From Chloroflexota bacterium (GTDB taxonomy: Bacteria; Chloroflexota; Dehalococcoidia; SM23-28-2; RBG-16-64-32), in the NCBI GenBank assembly GCA_029262695.1, contig JAJCYV010000004.1, forward strand, positions 2,807-66,806: a stretch of 64,000 nt of DNA, written 5' to 3'. Below, one piece after another: positions 53,024 through 64,000 of the stretch. The notes beneath the pieces are model-generated. The model was given only the letters and a program-made list of their open reading frames with translations. It did no database searches and was not told the origin of the DNA. Numbering within the stretch: position 1 is the stretch's first letter; each line of letters opens with the position of its first letter. A program made the translations under genes and the position numbers.

Positions 53024-55531
53024 TTGGCGGGGTCCTACGATGGGCTTCGCAGAGTGCTGGCGCTGGAGCGAGACAAGAAGTTCGGCGACGGCGCAGTAGT
53101 CGGCGGGCTCGACGAATACCTCCTGCGCTTCACCAGCGAGGCGAAGATCGACACCTCGCACCCGATTTCTCGCATCCTGCAGCAGCTCCCGCCCGGCGGC
53201 TACCGTGCCCTCCACCCGATCCAGCGGCAGCGCGTCGTCGACGAACTGCTGCGCTCGGCTGATGAAGGCGCGCAACGCGAAGCGGCAAAGGGGACGCCCG
53301 TAAGGCCGCCGCTTCCGCCGCCCGTGCCCGGGCCGGTCGCGCGCAAGCCCACCGCGCGCCCGAAGGCTGCAGTGAAGCCTGAAGCGAGGCCGGGCCCGGA
53401 CCTGACCCTCGATTCGCCGGTGTCCGTCCTGGCGAAGCGTCCGGACGTGACGCGTCTGCACAAGAAGGGCCTGGAGACGGTCCGCGACCTCCTCTATCAC
53501 TTCCCGAACCGCTACCATGATTACTCCGAGGTGCGCCCCATCGCCAGCCTAGCGTTTGGCGAGGAACAGACGGTGATCGCCGAGGTCTGGTCGGCCAAGG
53601 CGGTGATGATCGGCCGCAAACGGCGCGGCGCCGAAGCGATCGTCGGCGACGACTCGGGCACAATCCGCATCCTCTGGTTCGGCCAGCCGTGGGTTGCCAG
53701 GCAGCTCAAGACCGGGAAGAAAGTAGCGCTCAGCGGCAAGATCGGCTCGTTCAAGGGCCGAATGCAGATGGAGAACCCGGAGATCGAATCGCTTGACGAC
53801 GAGGCGATCTTCACGCGGCGCTTCGTGCCCGTCTACCGCAGCACCGAAGGCCTGTACATGAAGACGCTGCGCGATCTCGTGCGCCTCGCCGTCGATTCGT
53901 GCGCCGCCGATGTCCCGGAGACCCTCCCGGACGACGTGCGCGAGCGGAACGGCCTTATGGACGTCGGCCAGGCGTTCCGGCAGATACATGCACCGGAATC
54001 GCTCGAAGAGGCGGACGCCGCCAGGCACCGCTTCGCCTTCGAGGAACTGCTCTGGATCGAGATCGGTGTCGTCCGCCGCCGCCGCGAGTGGCAGATTGCG
54101 GGCGGCGCGCCTGTCCTCTCGCTCGAAGCTGCCGCACTCAACGCCTTCATAGACTCGCTGCCGTTCGCGCTCACGAAGGCACAGCGCAGGGCGATCGGCG
54201 ACGTGCTGGCGGATACGTCCGATGCCATACCGATGACTCGCCTGCTGGAGGGAGACGTCGGTAGCGGTAAAACGGTCGTCGCCGCGGCCGCCCTGCTCGC
54301 CGCAGTCGCCGCCGGCAAGCAGGGCGCGATCATGGCCCCGACCGAGATCCTGGCTGAGCAGCACATGCGGACGTTCATAAGCATCCTCGACCCGGACCGC
54401 GCCGCCCCGGAAGCGGACGGCCCGTGGTTCCGGGAATCCGGCGACGGCTTCCTCGTGCTGCGGCCGCCGTACCTGGAGCGGCCGCTGCGCGTCGCGCTGC
54501 TCACGGGCAGTCTCAAGGCGTCAGACAAGGCAGCCGTGCAGGAGGCGATCGCCCGCGGGGAGGTGGATATCGCCGTCGGCACGCACGCGCTCCTGCAGGA
54601 GTCCGTTGAGTTCGCAGACCTCGGTCTTGCCGTAATCGATGAGCAGCATCGCTTCGGTGTCGAGCAGCGCGCCGCCTTGCGGGAGAAGGGGGGCAGTCCT
54701 CACGTGCTCGTGATGACGGCGACGCCGATCCCGCGGACGCTGGCGCTCACCGTCTACGGTGATCTCGACATAACCGTGCTCAACGAGATGCCGCCCGGGC
54801 GCCCGCCGGTGAAGACGTACTTCGTGCCACCGCGGCGCCGCGAGGAGGCCACGCGCTTCCTCCAGAAGAAGGTCGAGGAGGGGCGCCAGGCTTACGTCAT
54901 CTGCCCGCTCGTCGAGGAGTCGGAGGCGATCGAGGCGAAGGCGGCCGTGCAAGAGTACGAGCGCCTGTCGCGGGACGAGTTCCCGGAGCTGCGGCTGGGC
55001 CTGCTGCACGGCCGCATGTCCGGCGGCGAGAAAGACGCCACGATGCGCGCCTTCCGCGACCACGACCTCGACGTCCTCGTCTCGACGTCGGTCGTCGAAG
55101 TCGGCGTCGACGTCCCGAACTCGACGGTGATCCTGATCGAGGGCGCGGACCGCTTCGGACTCTCCCAGCTGCACCAGTTCCGCGGCCGCGTGCGCCGCAG
55201 CGAGGAGCAGGCCTACTGCTTCCTCCTTTCAGACACGCAGTCCGAAGAGGCGATGGAGCGCCTGCAGATCATGGAGACGACGGACAGCGGCTTCGACCTG
55301 GCGGAGCACGACCTGCGCCTGCGGGGGCCGGGCGAATACTTTGGCAAGCGCCAGTCCGGCATGCCAGACCTGCGCGTCGCCCGCCTCACAGACGTTGAGC
55401 TGATCGAGGAGGCGCGGCGCGAGGCAACACGCATCCTCGACGAGGACCCGGAGCTGGAAGACACCTCTCACGCCGCGCTGCGCGAGAACGTGAGCAGGCT
55501 CTGGGACCGGCTGACGTCGGACGTGTCGTAG
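53024..55531 (+). CDS. recG: ATP-dependent DNA helicase RecG (with extended Pro/Ala-rich N-terminal linker)
   Basis: It has the wedge domain and SF2 helicase motifs (Walker A GDVGSGKT, DEQH, and the RGRVRR/QxxGRxGR region). It uses a TTG start. Confidence 0.9.
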   Translation: MAGSYDGLRRVLALERDKKFGDGAVVGGLDEYLLRFTSEAKIDTSHPISRILQQLPPGGYRALHPIQRQRVVDELLRSADEGAQREAAKGTPVRPPLPPPVPGPVARKPTARPKAAVKPEARPGPDLTLDSPVSVLAKRPDVTRLHKKGLETVRDLLYHFPNRYHDYSEVRPIASLAFGEEQTVIAEVWSAKAVMIGRKRRGAEAIVGDDSGTIRILWFGQPWVARQLKTGKKVALSGKIGSFKGRMQMENPEIESLDDEAIFTRRFVPVYRSTEGLYMKTLRDLVRLAVDSCAADVPETLPDDVRERNGLMDVGQAFRQIHAPESLEEADAARHRFAFEELLWIEIGVVRRRREWQIAGGAPVLSLEAAALNAFIDSLPFALTKAQRRAIGDVLADTSDAIPMTRLLEGDVGSGKTVVAAAALLAAVAAGKQGAIMAPTEILAEQHMRTFISILDPDRAAPEADGPWFRESGDGFLVLRPPYLERPLRVALLTGSLKASDKAAVQEAIARGEVDIAVGTHALLQESVEFADLGLAVIDEQHRFGVEQRAALREKGGSPHVLVMTATPIPRTLALTVYGDLDITVLNEMPPGRPPVKTYFVPPRRREEATRFLQKKVEEGRQAYVICPLVEESEAIEAKAAVQEYERLSRDEFPELRLGLLHGRMSGGEKDATMRAFRDHDLDVLVSTSVVEVGVDVPNSTVILIEGADRFGLSQLHQFRGRVRRSEEQAYCFLLSDTQSEEAMERLQIMETTDSGFDLAEHDLRLRGPGEYFGKRQSGMPDLRVARLTDVELIEEARREATRILDEDPELEDTSHAALRENVSRLWDRLTSDVS

Positions 55532-55570
55532 CGCTCGCGCCGCGCCTGGGCTAGAATTCTCACGTGAAGC

Positions 55571-55597
55571 GTCCGCCTCAGGCGGACGTTCGCGTTT
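55571..55597 (+). terminator. Hairpin GTCCGCC-TCA-GGCGGAC followed by a short U-rich tract (GTTCGCGTTTTG) between recG and argS; putative terminator, related to the repeat family
   Basis: It is a 7-bp perfect stem with a CCTCAGG core. Only a moderate U-tract follows. Confidence 0.35.
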
Positions 55598-55604
55598 TGA
55601 AGCC

Positions 55605-57272
55605 ATGATCAAAAACGAGATCGGGCAGCTGGTACAGGCCGCCGTACGCAAGGCTCAGGAGGCCGGCGACCTGCCCGCCGCCGCCATCCCCGACGCCCCC
55701 ATCGAGAGGCCGCAGCGGCCAGAGCACGGCGACTACGGCACGGGCCTCGCCATGCGTATGGCCCGCGCCGCCCAGATGAACCCGCTCGAAATCGCGAAGA
55801 TCGTCGCCAGGCACATCGAGGGCGACTCCCAGAACGGCGTCTTCGCCGCGATTGAGGTGGCGCCGCCGGGCTTCATTAACTTCCGCCTTTCCAGGGACTG
55901 GCTCGCCGCGCAGGTGGATGCGATCCTCGCCACCGGCCCGGAATTTGGCAACATCTCACTCGGCGCGGGCAAGAAGGTACAGGTCGAGTTCGTCTCCGCC
56001 AATCCCGTCGGGCCGATCCACGTCGGAAACGGCCGCGGGCTCGCCCTGGGCGACACCCTCGCGCGAGCGCTTGCCGCGGCTGGCTTCGAGGTCGAGCGGG
56101 AGTACTTCGTAAACGACGCCGGCACCCAGACCGACATCTTCGCCGAGACGCTCTACGTCCGCTATCAGCAGCTCTTCGGCCGCGAGGTGGAGATACCAGA
56201 GGGCGGCTACCCCGGCGAGTACATGCTCGACCTGGCGAACGCGCTCAAGGACGAGCTTGGCGACTCGCTCCTGCGGCCGGAAGGCGAGCCGAAGCCGCCC
56301 GAAGTACACGATCGCGGCGTCGCCCTGATGCTGGAGAACATCCGCCAGGACCTGGACGCGATCGGCGTGCAGTACGACAACTGGTTCTCGGAGCGCTCAG
56401 TCTACGACGACGGCACGTACAAGAAGACGATGGACCTGCTGCGCGAACACGGCTTCGTCTCGGAGCGAGAAGGCGCCGTGTGGTTCGTCTCCTCATCGCT
56501 CGGCGAGGAGAAGGACAACGTCCTCGTACGCTCAACCGGGGCGCCGACGTATTTCGCCTCCGACATCGCCTACCACTACGACAAGTTCGTGACGCGCGCC
56601 TTCGACCGCGTGATCAACATCTGGGGCGCCGACCACCAGGGCCACGTCCCGCGCATGAAGGCCGCTGTCACGGCGCTCGGCGTCGACCCTGACCGGCTGG
56701 AGATCATCATCTACCAGCTCGTCACATTGAAGCGCGGCGAAGAGGTGGTCCGCCTTTCCAAGCGCGCCGGTGACATCGTCACGCTGCGCTCCGTCGTCGA
56801 CGAAGTCGGCGCCGACGCCGCGCGCTACAACTTCGTGACGCGCGCCGCCGACTCGCACATGGAGTTCGACATCGAGCTGGCGAAGCGCCAGAGCGCGGAG
56901 AACCCGGTGTACTACGTCCAGTACGCCCACGCCCGCATCGCCGGCATCCTCGCGCAGGCCGCCGAGCGCGGACTCGACTTCGAGGGCGGCGACGTCGGCC
57001 TGCTCAAGGAGGACGCCGAGCTGGACCTCGTGCGCAAAATGCTACGCCTGCCTGAGCTGATCGAGCAGATCGCGCTCAGCAACGAGCCGCACCAGCTCCC
57101 GTACTACGCGACGGAGATGGCGACCGCCTTCCACGACTTCTACGAGAAGTGCCGCGTCCTCAGCGACGATGAAGCGCTGTCGCGGGCCCGCCTGAAGCTC
57201 GTCTCCGCCGCCAAGACCGTCCTCGCCCGCAGCCTGAGCCTCATGGGCATGAGCGCTCCAGAGCGCATGTAG
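55605..57272 (+). CDS. argS: Arginine--tRNA ligase
   Basis: It has the class I HIGH motif (PIHVGNGRG), a KMSK-like region and a C-terminal DALR anticodon-binding domain. Confidence 0.9.
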   Translation: MIKNEIGQLVQAAVRKAQEAGDLPAAAIPDAPIERPQRPEHGDYGTGLAMRMARAAQMNPLEIAKIVARHIEGDSQNGVFAAIEVAPPGFINFRLSRDWLAAQVDAILATGPEFGNISLGAGKKVQVEFVSANPVGPIHVGNGRGLALGDTLARALAAAGFEVEREYFVNDAGTQTDIFAETLYVRYQQLFGREVEIPEGGYPGEYMLDLANALKDELGDSLLRPEGEPKPPEVHDRGVALMLENIRQDLDAIGVQYDNWFSERSVYDDGTYKKTMDLLREHGFVSEREGAVWFVSSSLGEEKDNVLVRSTGAPTYFASDIAYHYDKFVTRAFDRVINIWGADHQGHVPRMKAAVTALGVDPDRLEIIIYQLVTLKRGEEVVRLSKRAGDIVTLRSVVDEVGADAARYNFVTRAADSHMEFDIELAKRQSAENPVYYVQYAHARIAGILAQAAERGLDFEGGDVGLLKEDAELDLVRKMLRLPELIEQIALSNEPHQLPYYATEMATAFHDFYEKCRVLSDDEALSRARLKLVSAAKTVLARSLSLMGMSAPERM

Positions 57273-57273
57273 C

Positions 57274-58086
57274 GTGGCTGACCTGCCCGTCGCGAAGTCG
57301 GGTGCCTCAGCACTGGACGTCGCCCGTCAGGCGGCCCGTGCGGCGGCTGACATCATGCTCGCGGCCTACAAACTCCCGGTCGAGAAGAAGACGAAGAGCC
57401 GCGGCAACTTCCTCACGAAGACCGATCTCGAATGTGAGAAGGCAGCGCTCGCGATCCTGGCTGCGGAATACCCGGACGTGCCGGTCCTCGCCGAGGAGAC
57501 GTCGGCGTCGGTGGGCGACTGGCGGAGCGGCCTCCTCTGGGTGGTCGACCCGATCGACGGCACGGCCAACTTCGCGCGCGGCATCCCGACGTTCGCGTTC
57601 AACATCGCCCTCTGCCTCGACGGCGAGCCGCTGCTCGGCCTGACCCTGCAGCCGGTGACCGGCGACGAGTTCGTCGGCGTGCTCGGCGACGGCCTGTCGG
57701 TGAACGGCGAGCCAACGCCGGTCTCGCGGGCGGAGACGATGGCTGAATGCCTGACGGGCTTCGGGCTCGGTTACCAGTACGACCGCTCGAAGCTAATCCT
57801 CGGCCTGCTCGCCGACATCTGGCCGGGTCTGCAGATGATGCAGAACGTTGGCAGCGCGGCGATCGCGCTGGCCTACACCGCCAGCGGCCGCTTCGACCTT
57901 TACGTGCACAGCTTCCTCGGGCCGTGGGACGTCGCCGCCGGCCTCGCCCAGGTGCGCGCCGCCGGCGGCCTCGCGCTCGACCGCGCGGGCGGTCACGCGA
58001 CGATCTTCAGCGAGGGCCTCGTTGCGGGCGCTCCCGGCCCCGTGCGCGAGTTCGTTGCCGCGACGAAAGACCGGCCCTGGCGCTGA
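57274..58086 (+). CDS. Inositol-monophosphatase / SuhB-family (FIG superfamily) phosphatase
   Basis: It has the metal-binding motifs EE..S, WVVDPIDGT and WD.AAG. Confidence 0.75.
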   Translation: MADLPVAKSGASALDVARQAARAAADIMLAAYKLPVEKKTKSRGNFLTKTDLECEKAALAILAAEYPDVPVLAEETSASVGDWRSGLLWVVDPIDGTANFARGIPTFAFNIALCLDGEPLLGLTLQPVTGDEFVGVLGDGLSVNGEPTPVSRAETMAECLTGFGLGYQYDRSKLILGLLADIWPGLQMMQNVGSAAIALAYTASGRFDLYVHSFLGPWDVAAGLAQVRAAGGLALDRAGGHATIFSEGLVAGAPGPVREFVAATKDRPWR

Positions 58087-58096
58087 CCGGTCTCGG

Positions 58097-58633
58097 CTAA
58101 GCGTCCCAGGCGCGCATCACGCGGTAGAGGGGCACTGGCTCCGGGATGCCCTTCATGATCGTCGGGCCGATCTCCTCGAACGTCACGCCGTCCAGAGGCG
58201 CCTCGATGCGCGAAGTGCACGCCTCGGAGACGAGCACTTCACCCGGTGCGGCGAGGTCGACGATGCGCGCCGCCACGTTCACGTCGTGACCGATGAAGTC
58301 GTTGCCGCGCAGGACGGGACTCCCGAAGTGGATGCCGATCCGCACCCAGAGCGGCTCGTCGTCCTCGCCCGAGGCCTCCTCGAACCGCTCCTGTAGCGCC
58401 ACGCTCACTTGCACTGCGGCCAGTGGTTCGTCGAACCAGAGCATCAGCCCGTCGCCCAGGTTCTTCACGATGCGCCCGCTGTCGCCCATCTGCTCGCGGA
58501 CGAGGCTTTCCTGCAGGTCGAGCAGCGAAAGGGCGGCGGCGTCGCCGCGCAGCGCCGTGAACTCGGTGAACCCGCTCAGGTCAGTGAACACGATCGTGCC
58601 CTCACGGGTCTCGATCGCCGTCGCCGGGGTCAT
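58097..58633 (-). CDS. Minimal class III adenylate/guanylate cyclase (catalytic CHD domain only, 178 aa)
   Basis: It has IVFTDLSGFT (the metal-binding Asp), KNLGDGLM, RIGIHFGSPV and GHDVNVAAR. The start was set at the internal Met; its ATG overlaps the upstream gene stop (ATGA). Confidence 0.7.
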   Translation of the reverse strand: MTPATAIETREGTIVFTDLSGFTEFTALRGDAAALSLLDLQESLVREQMGDSGRIVKNLGDGLMLWFDEPLAAVQVSVALQERFEEASGEDDEPLWVRIGIHFGSPVLRGNDFIGHDVNVAARIVDLAAPGEVLVSEACTSRIEAPLDGVTFEEIGPTIMKGIPEPVPLYRVMRAWDA

Positions 58634-59286
58634 CCCTCTTCGACCGTGATCGACCCCGATATCGTGCGCGCCTTGATCTTGAAGTCGGAGCCCCGCGGCA
58701 CTTCGATCTCCGTCTTGCCGGAGAGCGTCTTCAGGCGTGGGTCCGGGTGGCGCCCGGGGTCGACCGCCACCTCGATCTTGCCGGAGATCGAACGCAGCTC
58801 TACGTCCCCCTGGCCGGCGGTGCCCACCTCGATGTTGCCGCTCATCGTGTGTGCGCGGACTTCTTCGCCGACCCAGCCGATCTCGATACGGCCACTCTTT
58901 GTGTTCGCGCGACAGCGCCCTCCGCACCGCTCGACTTCAAGGTGCCCGCTGATGCTGCGAACGTCGACGTCGCCCTCGGTCTCGTCCACCTCGATGTGGC
59001 CCGAGACCGTGCTTACTTTGACGGTCCCGAAGCGTCCCTCCAGGCTCACGTTCCCGGAAACGGCGCCCACGGAAACGTTCGTGCCTTCCGGGACAGTGAT
59101 CCTGAGGTTCGTTGACCTCGTGCGCGTCTCGACCACGTGCTTGTCGTCGGAGACGTCTACTCGGTGGTCACCAGGCTCGATCTCGATGTCCTGGACGTCC
59201 TCGGCCTCGATCTCAATGCGGGCGGAGACGGAAAGCACGCGCAGCCGAGCGCCTTCAGGGAGCGGGAATCGCGTACCCATCGCCAC
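58630..59286 (-). CDS. DUF4097-like all-beta repeat protein (LiaG-type 'putative adhesin' domain), co-transcribed with the cyclase
   Basis: It shows a repetitive SG.IEV/TVSG.I pattern typical of DUF4097 beta-solenoids. No transmembrane segment or signal peptide is present. Confidence 0.55.
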   Translation of the reverse strand: MAMGTRFPLPEGARLRVLSVSARIEIEAEDVQDIEIEPGDHRVDVSDDKHVVETRTRSTNLRITVPEGTNVSVGAVSGNVSLEGRFGTVKVSTVSGHIEVDETEGDVDVRSISGHLEVERCGGRCRANTKSGRIEIGWVGEEVRAHTMSGNIEVGTAGQGDVELRSISGKIEVAVDPGRHPDPRLKTLSGKTEIEVPRGSDFKIKARTISGSITVEEG

Positions 59287-59337
59287 CTTAGTTTAGCCGA
59301 GAGTTGGGGTGCTCTGTATGACGGGCGTCACGGAGCC

Positions 59338-60858
59338 TCAATCGCGCGCCAGCTGGTATACGCCGTCCGCGTACGAGACGATCAGCAGCTCGCCGTTCGG
59401 CAGCTCCCCGAACGAGGCGATGAAGAGATCTTCGTTCGTGAGCAAGACGGCCGGACTATCGTCCAGCGTGTTGACGGCCCAGATGCGCCCCGTGTAGAAG
59501 TCGCCGTAGACGTACCAGCCGTAGAGCTCCGGCATCGCACCCCCGCGGTAGACGAAGCCGCCGGTCACAGCGAGGCCCAGGTTGTGGCCGTACACGGCGC
59601 GCGGCGGCGAGAACGTCTTGCCGGTGCACTGGTCGGGATCGCCCGGGATTTCGTACTCCGCGAACCCCTCGTAGCAGTCCCAGCCGTAGTTGCCGCCGCT
59701 GACCACGCGGTCGATCTCCTCCCAGAGTTCCTGGCCCACGTCGCCGAGCCAGACGTCGCCTGTGAGGCTGTCGACGGTCATGCGCCAGGGGTTCCGCAGT
59801 CCGTAGGCGAAGATCTCCTCACGGGCGCCCGCGACGCCGACGAAGGGGTTGTCGGGCGGGATCGCGTACGGCTGCTCCGACACGTCGATCCGCAGCACCT
59901 TGCCCAGCAGCGTGTCCAGCGCCTGACCGTTCTCGTTCGGATCGCCGCCGCCGCCCCCGTCGCCTGTCGAGAGCAGCAGGTAGTCGTTGTGGTCGAAGGC
60001 GATGCGTCCGCCGTTGTGGTTCGTCGCGAACTGCGGGATCGACAGCAACACCTCGGCGCTGCCCCCGTCGAGCGCGCTTGCAGTCGCGGAGTAGCGGGCG
60101 AGGACGGAGCGGTCCGGGCCTGTCGCCGTGTAGTAGACGTACACGCGCCCGTCCTGCGCGAAGGCCGGCGAGAAAGCGAGCGACAGCAGGCCCTCCTCGT
60201 TGTCGCCGGCGTCCACGATCCCGCTGACGTCGCCCCAGGCCTGCGCCGGGAAGCTCCCATCGAGCCATACGTGATACATCTGGCCGCTCTGCCGTACGGC
60301 GATCGCTTCCGTCGGCGCGCCGGGTATCACCGCCAGCTCGATCACGGCGCCGTTCGCCGCGCCGAGGGCGCCGCCGCTGATCACTGTCTCCAGGTGGTAG
60401 CCGCCCGCGGCCGGCGTCGCGCTGGGCGCCGGCGTGGCCGTCGCTGTGGTGGTCGGTGTTGCGGCCGGCGTCGCCGTGCCCGGTGGAGCGGATGTCGATA
60501 GCACGTCGAGCGGCTCGCCGATGGGCTGGCAGGTCCCGGAGACTGGCTGGGTGGGCTCCACACCGCCGCTGAACAGCAGCAGCAGCAACACATCGCCCGC
60601 GTTCACGTTGCTGTCGCAGTTCACGTCGGCGGCCTGCTCCACGCAGCCCGCGAAAGGCTCGACGTCGGCCGCAAAGCGCAGGCCGGCAAGCGCATCGAGA
60701 GAGTCGATCGATTCGCTGCAGTCGGCGTCGCCCTGCAAGACGCCGTCGGCGGACGAACCGCCCGACCACGGCGAGAGGGCCACGGCCGCAAGCGCGATGA
60801 GCGCCAGCGCCACGACCGCAGCGGCGCCGGCGACGCGGAGATACGTTGGCATCTTCAC
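59338..60858 (-). CDS. Secreted PQQ-dependent sugar dehydrogenase (soluble glucose/sorbosone dehydrogenase family) with N-terminal dockerin-like Ca-binding repeats
   Basis: A signal peptide is followed by DADCSESIDSLDALAGLR and DVNCDSNVNAGDVLLLL (dockerin type I-like), a Pro/Thr linker, and the SGDH beta-propeller (NHNGGRIAF...LLLSTGDGGGG...GLRNPWRM). Confidence 0.65.
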   Translation of the reverse strand: MKMPTYLRVAGAAAVVALALIALAAVALSPWSGGSSADGVLQGDADCSESIDSLDALAGLRFAADVEPFAGCVEQAADVNCDSNVNAGDVLLLLLFSGGVEPTQPVSGTCQPIGEPLDVLSTSAPPGTATPAATPTTTATATPAPSATPAAGGYHLETVISGGALGAANGAVIELAVIPGAPTEAIAVRQSGQMYHVWLDGSFPAQAWGDVSGIVDAGDNEEGLLSLAFSPAFAQDGRVYVYYTATGPDRSVLARYSATASALDGGSAEVLLSIPQFATNHNGGRIAFDHNDYLLLSTGDGGGGGDPNENGQALDTLLGKVLRIDVSEQPYAIPPDNPFVGVAGAREEIFAYGLRNPWRMTVDSLTGDVWLGDVGQELWEEIDRVVSGGNYGWDCYEGFAEYEIPGDPDQCTGKTFSPPRAVYGHNLGLAVTGGFVYRGGAMPELYGWYVYGDFYTGRIWAVNTLDDSPAVLLTNEDLFIASFGELPNGELLIVSYADGVYQLARD

Positions 60859-60918
60859 ATCAATAGTACGCGAGTTGTCACGGATGGGACTGCGTGGCCG
60901 GCGGGGAATGAGCTGTCG

Positions 60919-62106
60919 TTAGCTGCTGTGCCGCGAGGTAAAGCGCCCGATGCGTTCCAGCGCTTCTTCAAGCAGGTTGTACGGTGCCGCGTAGCACATC
61001 CGCACGTGGCCGCGGCCGCATTCGCCGAACGCAGAGCCGGGAATGACTGCGACCTTCTCTTCGTCCAGCAGACGCTCCGAGAACTCGACGTCGTCCATCC
61101 CCGTGGAGCGGATCGACGGGAAGGCGTAGAAGGCGCCGTGTGGTTCGCTCATCGCCAGGCCGATCTCCCCCAGGCCCTTCACCATTAGCCGGCGGCGCCG
61201 GTCGAACTCGGCGACGAAGCGCCGGACGTCCTCCTCGCCGTGCTGGATCGCCTCCAGCGCGGCGTACTGCGAAGGCGTTGGCGCCGACATCACGATGTAC
61301 TGGTGCACCTTCATCATCGCCTCAAGCAGGTCCGAAGGGGCGCAGACCCAGCCCACGCGCCAGCCTGTCATGGCGTAGGACTTGGAGAAGCCGCCCATGA
61401 GCACGGTGCGCTCCTTCATCCCGGGCAGCGAGGCGAAGCACGTGTGGTCCATGCCGTAGCTCAGCCGGTCGTAGATCTCGTCCGAAATGACGATCAGGTC
61501 GTGCCGCTCGGCCACGTCGGCGATGGCCGTCAGGTCTTCGCGCGACATCTGCGCGCCTGTCGGGTTGGAGGGATAGCCGAGCAGCAGCGCCTTGCTGCGC
61601 GGCGTGATCTTCGCTTCGATCTCCTCCGCCGTGACGCGGAAGCCGCGCTCCATCTCGGTCGGCACCGGTACCAGCTTGCCGCCGACCAGCGACACGCACG
61701 GCGGATAGGCAACGTAGTACGGGTCGGGGCAGAGGACTTCGTCTCCGGGGTCGAGCAGCACATGGCTGGCCAGGAGCAGCGCCTCGGACACGCCGATCGT
61801 GACGATGATCTCGCGCTGCGGGTCGTAGCGCACACCGTAGAGGCGCTGAATGTGGTCCGCGATCGCCTCTCGCAGCGGGGGGAGGCCGTAGTTGGACGTG
61901 TAGTGCGTCTCTCCGGACTCGACGGCTTCGAAGGCGGCGCGGCTGTAGCGCTCCGGCGTGACGAAATCGGGCTCGCCGACGCCCAGCGAGATCACGCCGT
62001 CAAGATTGGCGATAAGCTCAAAGAAGCGGCGTATTCCGGACGATGAAATCGCATCAATCCTGTGCGAAAATCGCTGATTCGCCTTTTTCCTGGTGCCTTC
62101 TTTCAC
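60919..62106 (-). CDS. PLP-dependent aminotransferase, class I (aspartate/aromatic aminotransferase-like)
   Basis: The PLP-lysine region is GFSKSYAMTGWRVGW, with the NPTG substrate motif. Confidence 0.8.
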   Translation of the reverse strand: MKEGTRKKANQRFSHRIDAISSSGIRRFFELIANLDGVISLGVGEPDFVTPERYSRAAFEAVESGETHYTSNYGLPPLREAIADHIQRLYGVRYDPQREIIVTIGVSEALLLASHVLLDPGDEVLCPDPYYVAYPPCVSLVGGKLVPVPTEMERGFRVTAEEIEAKITPRSKALLLGYPSNPTGAQMSREDLTAIADVAERHDLIVISDEIYDRLSYGMDHTCFASLPGMKERTVLMGGFSKSYAMTGWRVGWVCAPSDLLEAMMKVHQYIVMSAPTPSQYAALEAIQHGEEDVRRFVAEFDRRRRLMVKGLGEIGLAMSEPHGAFYAFPSIRSTGMDDVEFSERLLDEEKVAVIPGSAFGECGRGHVRMCYAAPYNLLEEALERIGRFTSRHSS

Positions 62107-62201
62107 AAACCCCTCCGCAAAGATAGTAACGCTAATGGTAGCAGAGGGGTGTCAGGCTGTCACCGACGGGGTTAGCGGCGATCACGTGCGCCCCGCGCTT
62201 G

Positions 62202-63293
62202 CTAGCGGCGCTGCTCGGCGTACCCACGCGCGGCGATTGGCCAGACGTCGGTCACTCGGTCGCCTTCGAGCACGTAGATCACGTCGTGCAGGTTGATCGT
62301 CGGGTCGGTGTGCGAGGGCACAAGGCGAATGCGGTCACCGACGGCGATCGCCGACTCCGGCGGCAGCGTGATCGAGGCGTGCTCATCGCTGAGGAAGAGG
62401 ATGCTCGCGCCCTCAACACCGTCGACGTCCGGGTTGCCGTGGTCCTCCGTGCAGGCCTTGTGTCCAGAGTCCGTCACGCAGAGTCCCGGGGCGGGCCGCG
62501 AAATCACAGTCCCCAGAACCCAGAACGCCTGCCGGAACGAGATGTCCAGCTTCTCGTACGCCCCGTCCATCAGTGTGTAGGAGCCGGCCTGGACCTCCGT
62601 GACGCCTCGGATGCGGCCCGTGATGTCGTAAGAGCCGGTCCCACCTGCCGAGACGATCTCGCAGGGCAGACCGGCGTCACGGACGGCGCTGACGGCGGAA
62701 AGCAGGCGGTCCACCGCGTCACGCGTGACCTGCTCACGCTTTTCCCGCTCCGGTATGCCGACGGCGTGGCCCTCGTAGCCCATGAGGCCGCGCAGGCGAA
62801 CGCCGGGCGTCTCCGCCACACGCGAGGCCAGCTCCGCGGCTGCGTCTGGCTGCACGCCGCAGCGCGGCATCCCCACGTTGACGTCGACGAGCACGCCGAC
62901 TTCGACTCCCGCGGTGGCGGCGGCCTCGCCGGCCATCGCCAGCCCCTCGTGTGAGTCGACCGCGATCTTGATATCGACGCCGCGAGAGGCAATCGTGGCC
63001 ACACGCGCCGTCTTGTCCGCGCCGATGACCTCGTTTGCGATCAGGATGTCGTCGCAGAAGTCCGCCACGGCCTCGGCCTCCGCGACGGTCGCGCACGTCA
63101 GACCCGTGCACGAACCGGCGGCGAGCTGGCGGCGGGCGATCTCCGGCGTCTTGTGCGCCTTGAAGTGGGGACGCAGCTTACAGGCGCCTTCGCGGAAGAA
63201 CTCCGCCATGCGCTCGATGTTCGCTTGCATGGCGGCCACATCGAGGATGAGCGCCGGCGTGGGGATGTCGGCAACGGTGTGGGGAGCGGTCAC
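62202..63293 (-). CDS. Alanine-racemase-N-terminal-domain protein, DSD1 family (D-serine deaminase / D-threonine aldolase-like)
   Basis: A GTG start is assumed (VTAPHTVADIPTPALILD...). The PLP Lys is in RPHFKAHKTPE, and the C-terminal domain is conserved. Confidence 0.6.
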   Translation of the reverse strand: MTAPHTVADIPTPALILDVAAMQANIERMAEFFREGACKLRPHFKAHKTPEIARRQLAAGSCTGLTCATVAEAEAVADFCDDILIANEVIGADKTARVATIASRGVDIKIAVDSHEGLAMAGEAAATAGVEVGVLVDVNVGMPRCGVQPDAAAELASRVAETPGVRLRGLMGYEGHAVGIPEREKREQVTRDAVDRLLSAVSAVRDAGLPCEIVSAGGTGSYDITGRIRGVTEVQAGSYTLMDGAYEKLDISFRQAFWVLGTVISRPAPGLCVTDSGHKACTEDHGNPDVDGVEGASILFLSDEHASITLPPESAIAVGDRIRLVPSHTDPTINLHDVIYVLEGDRVTDVWPIAARGYAEQRR

Positions 63294-63327
63294 GCCGTGG
63301 AGTATCGCGCGTAGTGGTGGACGCCGT

Positions 63328-64000
63328 CTACAGCGGCGGGAACTCGTCGTGCCAGGCGGTCGACTGCTCGTAGGCATGGGCGGCCTGGAACATCGTCGCC
63401 TCGTCGAACGGCCTGGCGATGATCTGCAGGCCGATCGGCAGGCGCGCGCCGTCGTCCGCCGTCGCGAAGCCACAGGGCACGGAGATGCCAGGCAGGCCGG
63501 CGATGCTGACCGGGATCGTGCAGACGTCGTTGAGGTACATCTGCAGCGGGTCGCCGATCTTCTCGCCGATCTTGAACGCCGGCGTCGGTGATACGGGCGC
63601 GACCAGCACGTCGTGCTTCTCGAACGCCGCGTCGAACTCGCGGCGGATCAGCGTCCGCACCTTCTGCGCCTTCAGGTAGTACGCGTCGTAGTAGCCGGAG
63701 GAGAGTGCGTACGTGCCGATCATGATGCGCCGCTTCACCTCCTCGCCGAAACCACGCTGACGCGTGCCCTCCATGTCGGCCCACATCGATCCGCCCTCGT
63801 CGTACGAGAATCCGTACTTCACGCCGTCGTAGCGCGCCAGGTTCGCCGACGCCTCCGACGGCGCGATGATGTAGTAGACCGAGACCGCGTGCCCCGTGGA
63901 GGGCAACGAGACGTCTGTGTCGATCTCTGCGCCAAGACTCTCCAGTTGCGCGATGGCCTTCTCCACGGCCTCACGAACGTCGCCGTCCATGCCCTCGATG
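63328..64000 (-). CDS. gatA: Glutamyl-tRNA(Gln) amidotransferase subunit A, C-terminal part (5' end beyond window)
   Basis: The amidase-signature-family C-terminus is conserved ([11 protein letters not shown]...[25 protein letters not shown]). Confidence 0.85.

Follow-up and report, generated by a model that had tools for sequence, protein, structure and literature searches.

Class III adenylyl cyclases are homodimers with two symmetric active sites across the dimer interface. The M. tuberculosis pseudogene Rv1120c has its functional orthologue in Ma1120 from Mycobacterium avium, a stand-alone adenylyl cyclase of this class. In Rv1264 and Rv1900c/LipJ the regulator lies within the same polypeptide as the catalytic domain, and the regulatory module of Rv1264 controls the geometry of the catalytic dimer, as captured in its inhibited and active states (PDB 1y10/1y11). 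Here we describe a two-gene locus of an uncultured Chloroflexota bacterium (GenBank assembly GCA_029262695.1, contig JAJCYV010000004.1), located in a 64-kb stretch of DNA that is hereafter called the window, in which a small class III nucleotidyl cyclase is encoded directly downstream of a soluble protein of the Toastrack/DUF4097 type. Unlike in Rv1264 and Rv1900c, the candidate regulator is here a separate protein, translationally coupled to the enzyme.

LiaF acts as an inhibitor of LiaS. In the LiaF-LiaSR and VraT-VraSR systems, as in the window, a Toastrack protein is encoded beside a signalling enzyme, on which it is thought to act by protein-protein contact, and together with LiaG-LiaI/LiaH and YvlB-PspA these systems document Toastrack/DUF4097 proteins as interaction partners near signalling enzymes (PMC9239133, PMC11237479). 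The scaffold role of the Toastrack domain is a prediction (PMC11237479), and LiaG has no function attributed to it and no deletion phenotype (PMC9239133). The locus described here differs from the LiaF and VraT systems in having a soluble Toastrack protein and, as the enzyme, a nucleotide cyclase, and in lacking an envelope-stress context. While each of its parts is of a known kind, be it the Ma1120-like minimal cyclase of class III, the Toastrack domain or the CRP-type site, their combination is undescribed in the literature searched. The "Toastrack" papers found make no connection to a cyclase, the words cyclase, cAMP (cyclic AMP) and nucleotide are absent from the paper that defines the domain and from its supplement (PMC11237479), and where DUF4097 or YvlB and a cyclase do appear in the same paper, the cyclase serves only as a two-hybrid reporter.

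Organization and conservation of the gene pair

The two open reading frames (ORFs) span positions 58097–59286 on the minus strand of the window. The first is the Toastrack/DUF4097 gene (58630–59280), which encodes a soluble β-helix protein of 216 amino acids (aa) with a conserved cyclase partner, and the second is the class III nucleotidyl cyclase gene (58097–58633), whose stand-alone 178-aa product is a predicted adenylyl cyclase. The two genes share an ATGA at 58630–58633 (minus strand, junction sequence GAAGAGGGATGACCCC), in which the ATG that starts the cyclase (58633–58631) overlaps the TGA that ends the Toastrack gene (58632–58630), and the junction stretch of the two genes reads GGATGACC. 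Judged from these overlapping codons the pair is translationally coupled, in agreement with the initial annotation of the locus, which had pointed to the same ATGA. The annotation had also assigned 218 aa to the DUF4097 protein, and while the ORF itself stands, its likely length is 216 aa. Translation probably starts at ATG 59280 and not at GTG 59286, since almost all homologues are 216 aa long and begin with MG(T/S)R, and since this ATG lies at a fixed distance of 9 nucleotides (nt) from a conserved −10-like box. Both proteins are acidic, about 19–23 kDa in size and devoid of hydrophobic segments, consistent with the earlier description of the DUF4097 protein as soluble.

The pairing of the two genes is conserved in both directions. 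When searched from the Toastrack side, a cyclase gene is found directly downstream in 23 of 23 inspectable relatives. A scan of species-representative genomes, which was seeded with the closer Toastrack sequences and covers the Chloroflexota branch, yielded 17 Chloroflexota/Dehalococcoidia loci, all 17 with the cyclase immediately downstream and 16 with the ATGA overlap. The gene order common to these loci is DSD-AspAT-GSDH, the pair and then SuhB-ArgS-RecG, and because the whole neighbourhood is shared, they count on their own as one lineage. Four distant Toastrack homologues (37–43% identity) each have a 173–186-aa cyclase directly downstream, and three of the four sit in entirely different neighbourhoods. 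Two more Toastrack look-ups were likewise paired, one of them on a contig that ends 31 codons into a gene encoding the N-terminus of the cyclase family.

From the cyclase side, a metagenome scan with two cyclase motifs gave more than 181 confirmed hits, of which the 80 best were followed up as loci, with the cyclases scored in bits on a hidden Markov model (HMM) of the paired family. All 54 metagenomic cyclases of at least 173 bits with usable upstream DNA have a Toastrack ORF directly upstream, four others of at least 173 bits being left out of the count as they start less than 100 nt from a contig end, and the loci L001–L004 and L111–L113 are paired as well. No Toastrack ORF lies upstream of the cyclases of 136 bits or less with usable upstream DNA (L095–L110, many of them multidomain), a range into which Ma1120 also falls with 113 bits. 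DUF4097 genes of 33% identity or less from Gemmatimonadaceae, Bacteroidetes, Clostridia, Planctomycetia and Streptomyces were unpaired, with no cyclase nearby. The plasmid collection contains DUF4097 genes only at 28–32% identity, and the one plasmid neighbourhood examined, from Bradyrhizobium, has an adjoining radical SAM gene and no cyclase.

The overlap of the two genes is also maintained. Over 78 loci, which include a few redundant copies and for which start codons were chosen heuristically, 55 junctions are 4-nt overlaps and nine are 1-nt overlaps (TGATG), most of the remaining ones overlap too, and a gap, of 1–58 nt, is present in only four. The Chloroflexota synteny block accounts for 32 loci, a few of them duplicates, and a further 47 lack its genes altogether, about sixteen of the latter with at least 1 kb of DNA on both sides. 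No third shared gene was recovered by all-against-all clustering of the flanking ORFs, in which shadow ORFs and the genes of the Chloroflexota synteny block were all that grouped together. Two phyla are represented among the pairs, Chloroflexota and Actinomycetota, the latter assignment resting on a single NCBI label, that of an Acidimicrobiales metagenome-assembled genome (MAG; protein P0259, locus L111) from a homologue search seeded with a distant cyclase, and the loci L112 and L113 provide additional genomic contexts. All pair members come from MAGs or metagenomes. The Toastrack subfamily amounts to about 392 clusters at 50% identity (E ≤ 1e-30), and 39,179 Toastrack-like clusters match the profile overall. 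Finally, the partners co-diverge, with r = 0.84 over 47 non-redundant full-length pairs. Co-occurrence in other genomes, which the initial annotation had named as a check on its proposal, is essentially obligate both ways, across contexts and phyla, and we are highly confident that the Toastrack protein and the cyclase make up a real, conserved functional pair.

Co-occurrence and coupling indicate joint expression, not binding, and the two proteins might accordingly be co-regulated under a shared CRP-controlled promoter without the Toastrack protein being a regulator of the cyclase, in which case it could be a cAMP effector or target or serve an unrelated function. Such an explanation would fit the lack of any natural Toastrack-cyclase fusion among 519 collected proteins, the faster evolution of the Toastrack protein (mean identity 41% as compared to 55% for the cyclase over the 47 pairs) and the assays of Ma1120-type enzymes alone (PMC4215837). 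It is at odds with the strict one-to-one pairing in both directions, in two phyla and many contexts and with the overlapping codons kept, a pattern typical of subunits of one complex, and with the lack of a recognisable domain for binding cyclic nucleoside monophosphates (cNMPs) in the Toastrack protein in profile searches. Taken together, we regard the co-regulation explanation as rather unlikely.

The cyclase

The cyclase matches the Pfam family Guanylate_cyc (PF00211) with an E-value of 1.6e-12 and 47.8 bits against a cut-off of 21.9, the domain covering residues 11–165 of 178, and the protein is indeed stand-alone, as had been proposed. The canonical motifs attributed to it are likewise all present. 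D18 and D61 correspond to the metal-binding residues, K57 and D112 to the substrate pair that specifies ATP, and N119 and R123 to the transition-state residues, and all six are invariant in 61 cyclase relatives. The K161 of the MKG motif is conserved in at least 90% of the relatives, and the family has conserved motifs of its own in GFTEFTA, PLWVRIG and GPxxMKGIPEP.

The closest relative of known structure, both by sequence (E 4e-22) and by fold, is Ma1120, which is similar in size, consists of the catalytic domain only and shares the ATP-specifying Lys/Asp pair, although the identity to the window cyclase is just about 32–35% and Ma1120 is not reported to have a Toastrack partner. The residues K57 and D112 align with K101 and D157 of Ma1120, which were found by mutagenesis to set the preference for ATP (PMC4215837). 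The region of D18 and D61 aligns with the Ma1120 motifs FTD and GDG, and the window cyclase has a canonical VNxAAR motif where Ma1120 reads RNVAMAAR, with the Asn two positions earlier. An AlphaFold2 model of the cyclase, with a mean predicted local distance difference test (pLDDT) score of 92.6, superimposes on chain 4wp8_B of Ma1120 with TM-scores of 0.86/0.92 and a root-mean-square deviation (rmsd) of 1.5 Å. In Foldseek the top matches are Ma1120 (TM 0.86–0.93), Rv1900c and Rv1264, with TM-scores up to 0.93 and rmsd values of 1.4–1.8 Å, and the catalytic domains of the latter two are also the next-best matches by sequence.

These features make it probable that the protein is an active adenylyl cyclase, with cAMP as its presumed product. 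The protein might instead make another nucleotide product or be inactive; Ma1120 itself has residual guanylyl cyclase activity at alkaline pH (PMC4215837), and the window protein bears a weak likeness (38 bits) to the Pycsar cyclase model. We find this alternative improbable, as all six catalytic residues are invariant, the K/D pair is of the ATP-specifying type, the 1.5-Å superposition is on the ATP-analogue-bound form of Ma1120, and the operator upstream of the pair is of the cAMP-receptor type. The initial annotation had further held that minimal cyclases need a partner, which appears overstated, as Ma1120 was assayed as a purified enzyme and a partner protein is not mentioned in the available part of its description (PMC4215837). 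At two unrelated loci, further multidomain class III cyclases are encoded at most 4 kb from the pair (L029, 1–861; L112, 7941–8534), one of them a 912-aa protein of Guanylate_cyc-AAA_22-HTH_77-TPR architecture.

The Toastrack protein

The partner of the cyclase matches DUF4097 (PF13349) with an E-value of 7.2e-14 and 52.2 bits against a cut-off of 22.9, so that both domain assignments of the initial annotation are well above the Pfam cut-offs. The AlphaFold2 model (pLDDT 95.2) is an all-β repeat structure of 22 strands, and its best fold matches in the PDB are 4qrk, ranked first by Foldseek, 3pet, 3lyc and 4opw (probability 1.00). The TM-scores of 0.25–0.59 are modest, as is expected for repeat proteins of differing length. 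The structures 4QRK and 4OPW are the exemplars that Ravi et al. 2024 (PMC11237479) named for the Toastrack domain (DUF4097/DUF2154/DUF2807), the fold of which is a single-stranded β-helix. Neither a transmembrane segment nor a signal peptide was found in the protein, for which the maximum Kyte-Doolittle mean over 19 residues is 0.69, and an intracellular Toastrack protein free of transmembrane segments agrees with the prediction made for such proteins (PMC11237479).

LiaG and YvlB, both of which contain DUF4097, belong to envelope-stress networks (PMC9239133, PMC11237479), and by analogy to LiaG the initial annotation had suggested a stress-to-cNMP signalling module. In such a module the DUF4097 protein would sense envelope damage in a Lia- or Psp-like manner and relay it to cNMP synthesis, and a weak C-terminal resemblance to LiaF_C (E 8e-5, below the cut-off) might be taken in the same sense. 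The analogy finds no support. The protein is not a LiaG orthologue, as it scores 50.1 bits on the LiaG equivalog model (NCBIfam NF049997) where the cut-off is 285, and it lacks the N-terminal membrane anchor. Its neighbours are GSDH, aminotransferase, inositol monophosphatase and ArgS genes and not a liaIH-liaGFSR locus. PspA, PspC, LiaI-LiaF-TM, a histidine kinase or another membrane protein or envelope-stress gene does not recur beside the pair in any context examined, and the usual Toastrack contexts (fusion to, or an operon with, PspC, LiaI-LiaF-TM, two-component, HAAS-PadR and ABC/GntR), which are common but do not define the domain, are likewise missing there. We give little credence to an envelope-stress module.

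A possible clue to the function of the protein lies in its cysteines. A CxxxC motif formed by C119 and C123 (codons C119-G-G-R-C123 at 58912–58926, minus strand) is near-invariant, the two residues being found in 96 and 100 of 105 relatives, respectively. Most relatives outside the clade of the window have in addition a CxC at positions 192/194 (66–70 of 105), and in many of them a VRCP motif near position 63 contributes another Cys; the clade of the window (at least 70% identity) has lost both. The conserved cysteines may be redox-active or bind a metal. In some Toastrack partners the first strands are followed by a His/Arg-rich insertion of 25–35 residues, such as GRGRHRHRHGILGHLRSHEHDEGERQHR, which is absent from the window protein (L028, 4678–5412; L036 and L037; proteins P0202–P0208 and P0214).

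The Pycsar systems, too, are two-gene units with a small cyclase resembling class III, and the pair could in principle be an anti-phage defence system of the Pycsar/CBASS kind, with the cyclase as the signal generator and the Toastrack protein as the effector. The cyclase does match the PADLOC model PycC (E 2e-10, 38 bits, residues 5–124) and the two-gene cassette is found in differing contexts, but the match is no stronger than generic class III homology would give, and the substrate residues are those of a purine (ATP) enzyme. PADLOC returned no match for the Toastrack protein, which also has no cNMP-binding, transmembrane, TIR or nuclease domain that would suit an effector. Finally, in 32 loci, including the 17 in species-representative genomes, the pair sits in a stable housekeeping block with ArgS, RecG and SuhB, which points to vertical inheritance. 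The defence reading was rejected and appears highly improbable.

A probable CRP-type operator upstream of the pair

In Escherichia coli the cyclase gene cyaA is autoregulated by cAMP-CRP, the E. coli enzyme being of class I. The cyclase of the window, although of class III and from an uncultured Chloroflexota host, likewise appears to be preceded by a CRP-type site. When the 90-nt stretches preceding the Toastrack start codons were compared, an inverted repeat emerged at a fixed distance; in the window it is CGTGACGCCCGTCATA (59317–59332, minus strand), which matches TGTGA-N6-TCACA at 8 of 10 positions and is a probable operator; it lies just upstream of the region covered by the initial annotation and was missed there. 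The palindrome starts 5 nt past the stop codon of the GSDH-family gene and 52 nt before the Toastrack ATG, in a spacer of 57 nt, and is followed by a −10-like hexamer TAAACT (59290–59295, minus strand) 9 nt before that ATG.

In 18 species-level upstream sequences the only invariant columns of the spacer are GTGA..TCA.A and TA.A.T. The hexamer reads TAAACT or TACACT in most relatives and TATATT in one, and its distance to the ATG is 9 nt in nearly all 18. Of the related loci, 12 match TGTGA-N6-TCACA perfectly (10/10). The core GTGA-N6-TCAC was counted 23 times over 24 such loci (179 kb), as opposed to 2.0 ± 1.3 times expected by chance, never twice in one locus and in each case some 51 nt ahead of the ATG. 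It is this cross-species footprint, and not the lone match in the window, that supports the operator, and, as far as can be read from the DNA, the conserved CRP-type operator is the strongest link of the locus to cAMP signalling.

The arrangement of the two elements also suggests how they might work. The 16-mer palindrome and the TAAACT box are separated by 21 nt, and when the box is placed as a −10 element at −12 to −7, the palindrome would be centred at about −41.5. A palindrome centred at −41.5 is the geometry of class II CRP-dependent promoters. The palindrome together with the −10-like box suggests that the 57-nt spacer holds a promoter belonging to the pair itself, and this would be a class II CRP-type promoter with a transcription start site 2–4 nt before the ATG, giving an effectively leaderless transcript. 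The scan for sigma-70 consensus promoters and terminators returned no match, the promoter scan being empty because a −35 box is lacking, and the Rfam scan gave only one sub-threshold chance match.

Outside the synteny block, strong CRP-type sites were found in 4 of 21 loci, three of them at −53 to −56, and a GTGA[CT] half-site lies within −62 to −43 in 13 of 26 non-syntenic loci compared to a background of 3.4%. Loci of the Acidimicrobiales type (L027, L111, L112 and L113) share a variant motif, sGTGACsrACGAC, some 50 nt upstream, and in these loci a TGCGACAAT box precedes the ATG by 6 nt.

Genomic surroundings

The gene immediately upstream of the pair, on the same strand, encodes a GSDH-family dehydrogenase (59338–60858, minus strand), which resembles PQQ-type sugar dehydrogenases and has a hydrophobic N-terminus and a weak match to a dockerin-like segment; in close relatives, two or three tandem GSDH paralogues occupy this position (L001, 2467–7176). 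An aminotransferase gene is also found upstream on the same strand. Downstream lies a convergent gene of the inositol-monophosphatase family, with 10 nt between the stop codons, and then ArgS. The order DSD-aminotransferase-GSDH-pair followed by inositol monophosphatase-ArgS-RecG-DegV-FakA is kept in Dehalococcoidia-type MAGs down to approximately 47% Toastrack identity (window, 53024–63473; L001 and L004–L021). In two other loci (L027, 4900–6220; L111, 3230–4552) a gene of the kinase-like APH family begins 2 nt after the cyclase, a spacing that suggests a three-gene operon there.

Several long ORFs overlap the pair, two of them antisense (58409–59296 and 59137–60501, plus strand), and the cyclase ORF can be extended to 276 aa from a GTG (58097–58927, minus strand). 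The overlapping and antisense ORFs are most likely shadow ORFs typical of DNA with 67% G+C and not genes, and homologous shadow ORFs cluster because the real genes beneath them are conserved.

Discussion

In the model that we hold with moderate confidence, the Toastrack protein, encoded by a gene of its own, serves as the regulatory subunit of a cytosolic adenylyl cyclase that is under CRP-type feedback. The model builds on what the analysis has shown, namely both domain assignments, the set of catalytic residues, the ATGA coupling, the obligate pairing in varied contexts and in two phyla, and the conserved operator. In this model, the minimal class III enzyme would homodimerise to form two active sites, and the Toastrack protein would be made in step with it through the overlapping codons. 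By analogy to the LiaF- and VraT-type systems and from the linkage of the genes, the Toastrack protein might be a stoichiometric cyclase-binding partner, a regulatory or scaffolding subunit that binds the cyclase by its flat β-sheet faces and thereby controls the formation of the productive dimer. The redox or metal state of the conserved cysteines is a candidate input. The cassette is probably switched by a CRP-family regulator, as suggested by the CRP-type palindrome and the −10-like box in front of the pair, and in the Chloroflexota lineage of the window cAMP would then act back on its own production. The parts of the model that we infer are cAMP as the product, the physical binding of the two proteins, which way the regulation works, the signal, and which DNA-binding protein regulates the cassette.

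A more specific form of the model can be put forward only tentatively, in which a "split" class III adenylyl cyclase has the Toastrack protein as its sensor subunit, the conserved cysteines of the Toastrack protein reading the cytosolic redox or metal state and gating dimerisation, with CRP-type feedback acting on a leaderless promoter.

A number of observations weigh against the overall model. First, since Ma1120 was assayed as a purified enzyme (PMC4215837), a partner may be dispensable for catalysis, and as no fusions were found, there is no Rosetta-stone evidence for the two proteins acting together. Next, the second pair of cysteines is absent from the clade of the window, which weakens the case for a universal cysteine-based sensing. 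Finally, the operator has its own difficulties. In the window alone its 8/10 match is not significant, as eight matches with two mismatches are present in the 64 kb where 12.4 are expected, and the start site of the leaderless transcript is placed by inference from the −10-like box. A recognisable CRP-type site is absent in about half of the non-Chloroflexota loci, and no CRP-family gene was detected in the window or the fetched loci with a recognition-helix regular expression or with tblastn using an E. coli CRP query.

The Toastrack/DUF4097 domain is pan-bacterial and without a demonstrated molecular activity, and a soluble two-protein system with an easily measured cAMP output would offer a simple route to the effect of a Toastrack protein on a partner enzyme. 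For cAMP biology, the locus adds a separately encoded candidate regulator to a field in which regulatory domains are mostly fused to the enzyme, and the putative CRP-type operator and leaderless promoter would provide the first regulatory motif for the uncultured Chloroflexota lineage of the window. Should the Toastrack protein turn out to be a sensor subunit, the pair would be the first case of a Toastrack/DUF4097 domain with an enzymatic read-out, and of a β-helix protein that regulates a nucleotide cyclase.

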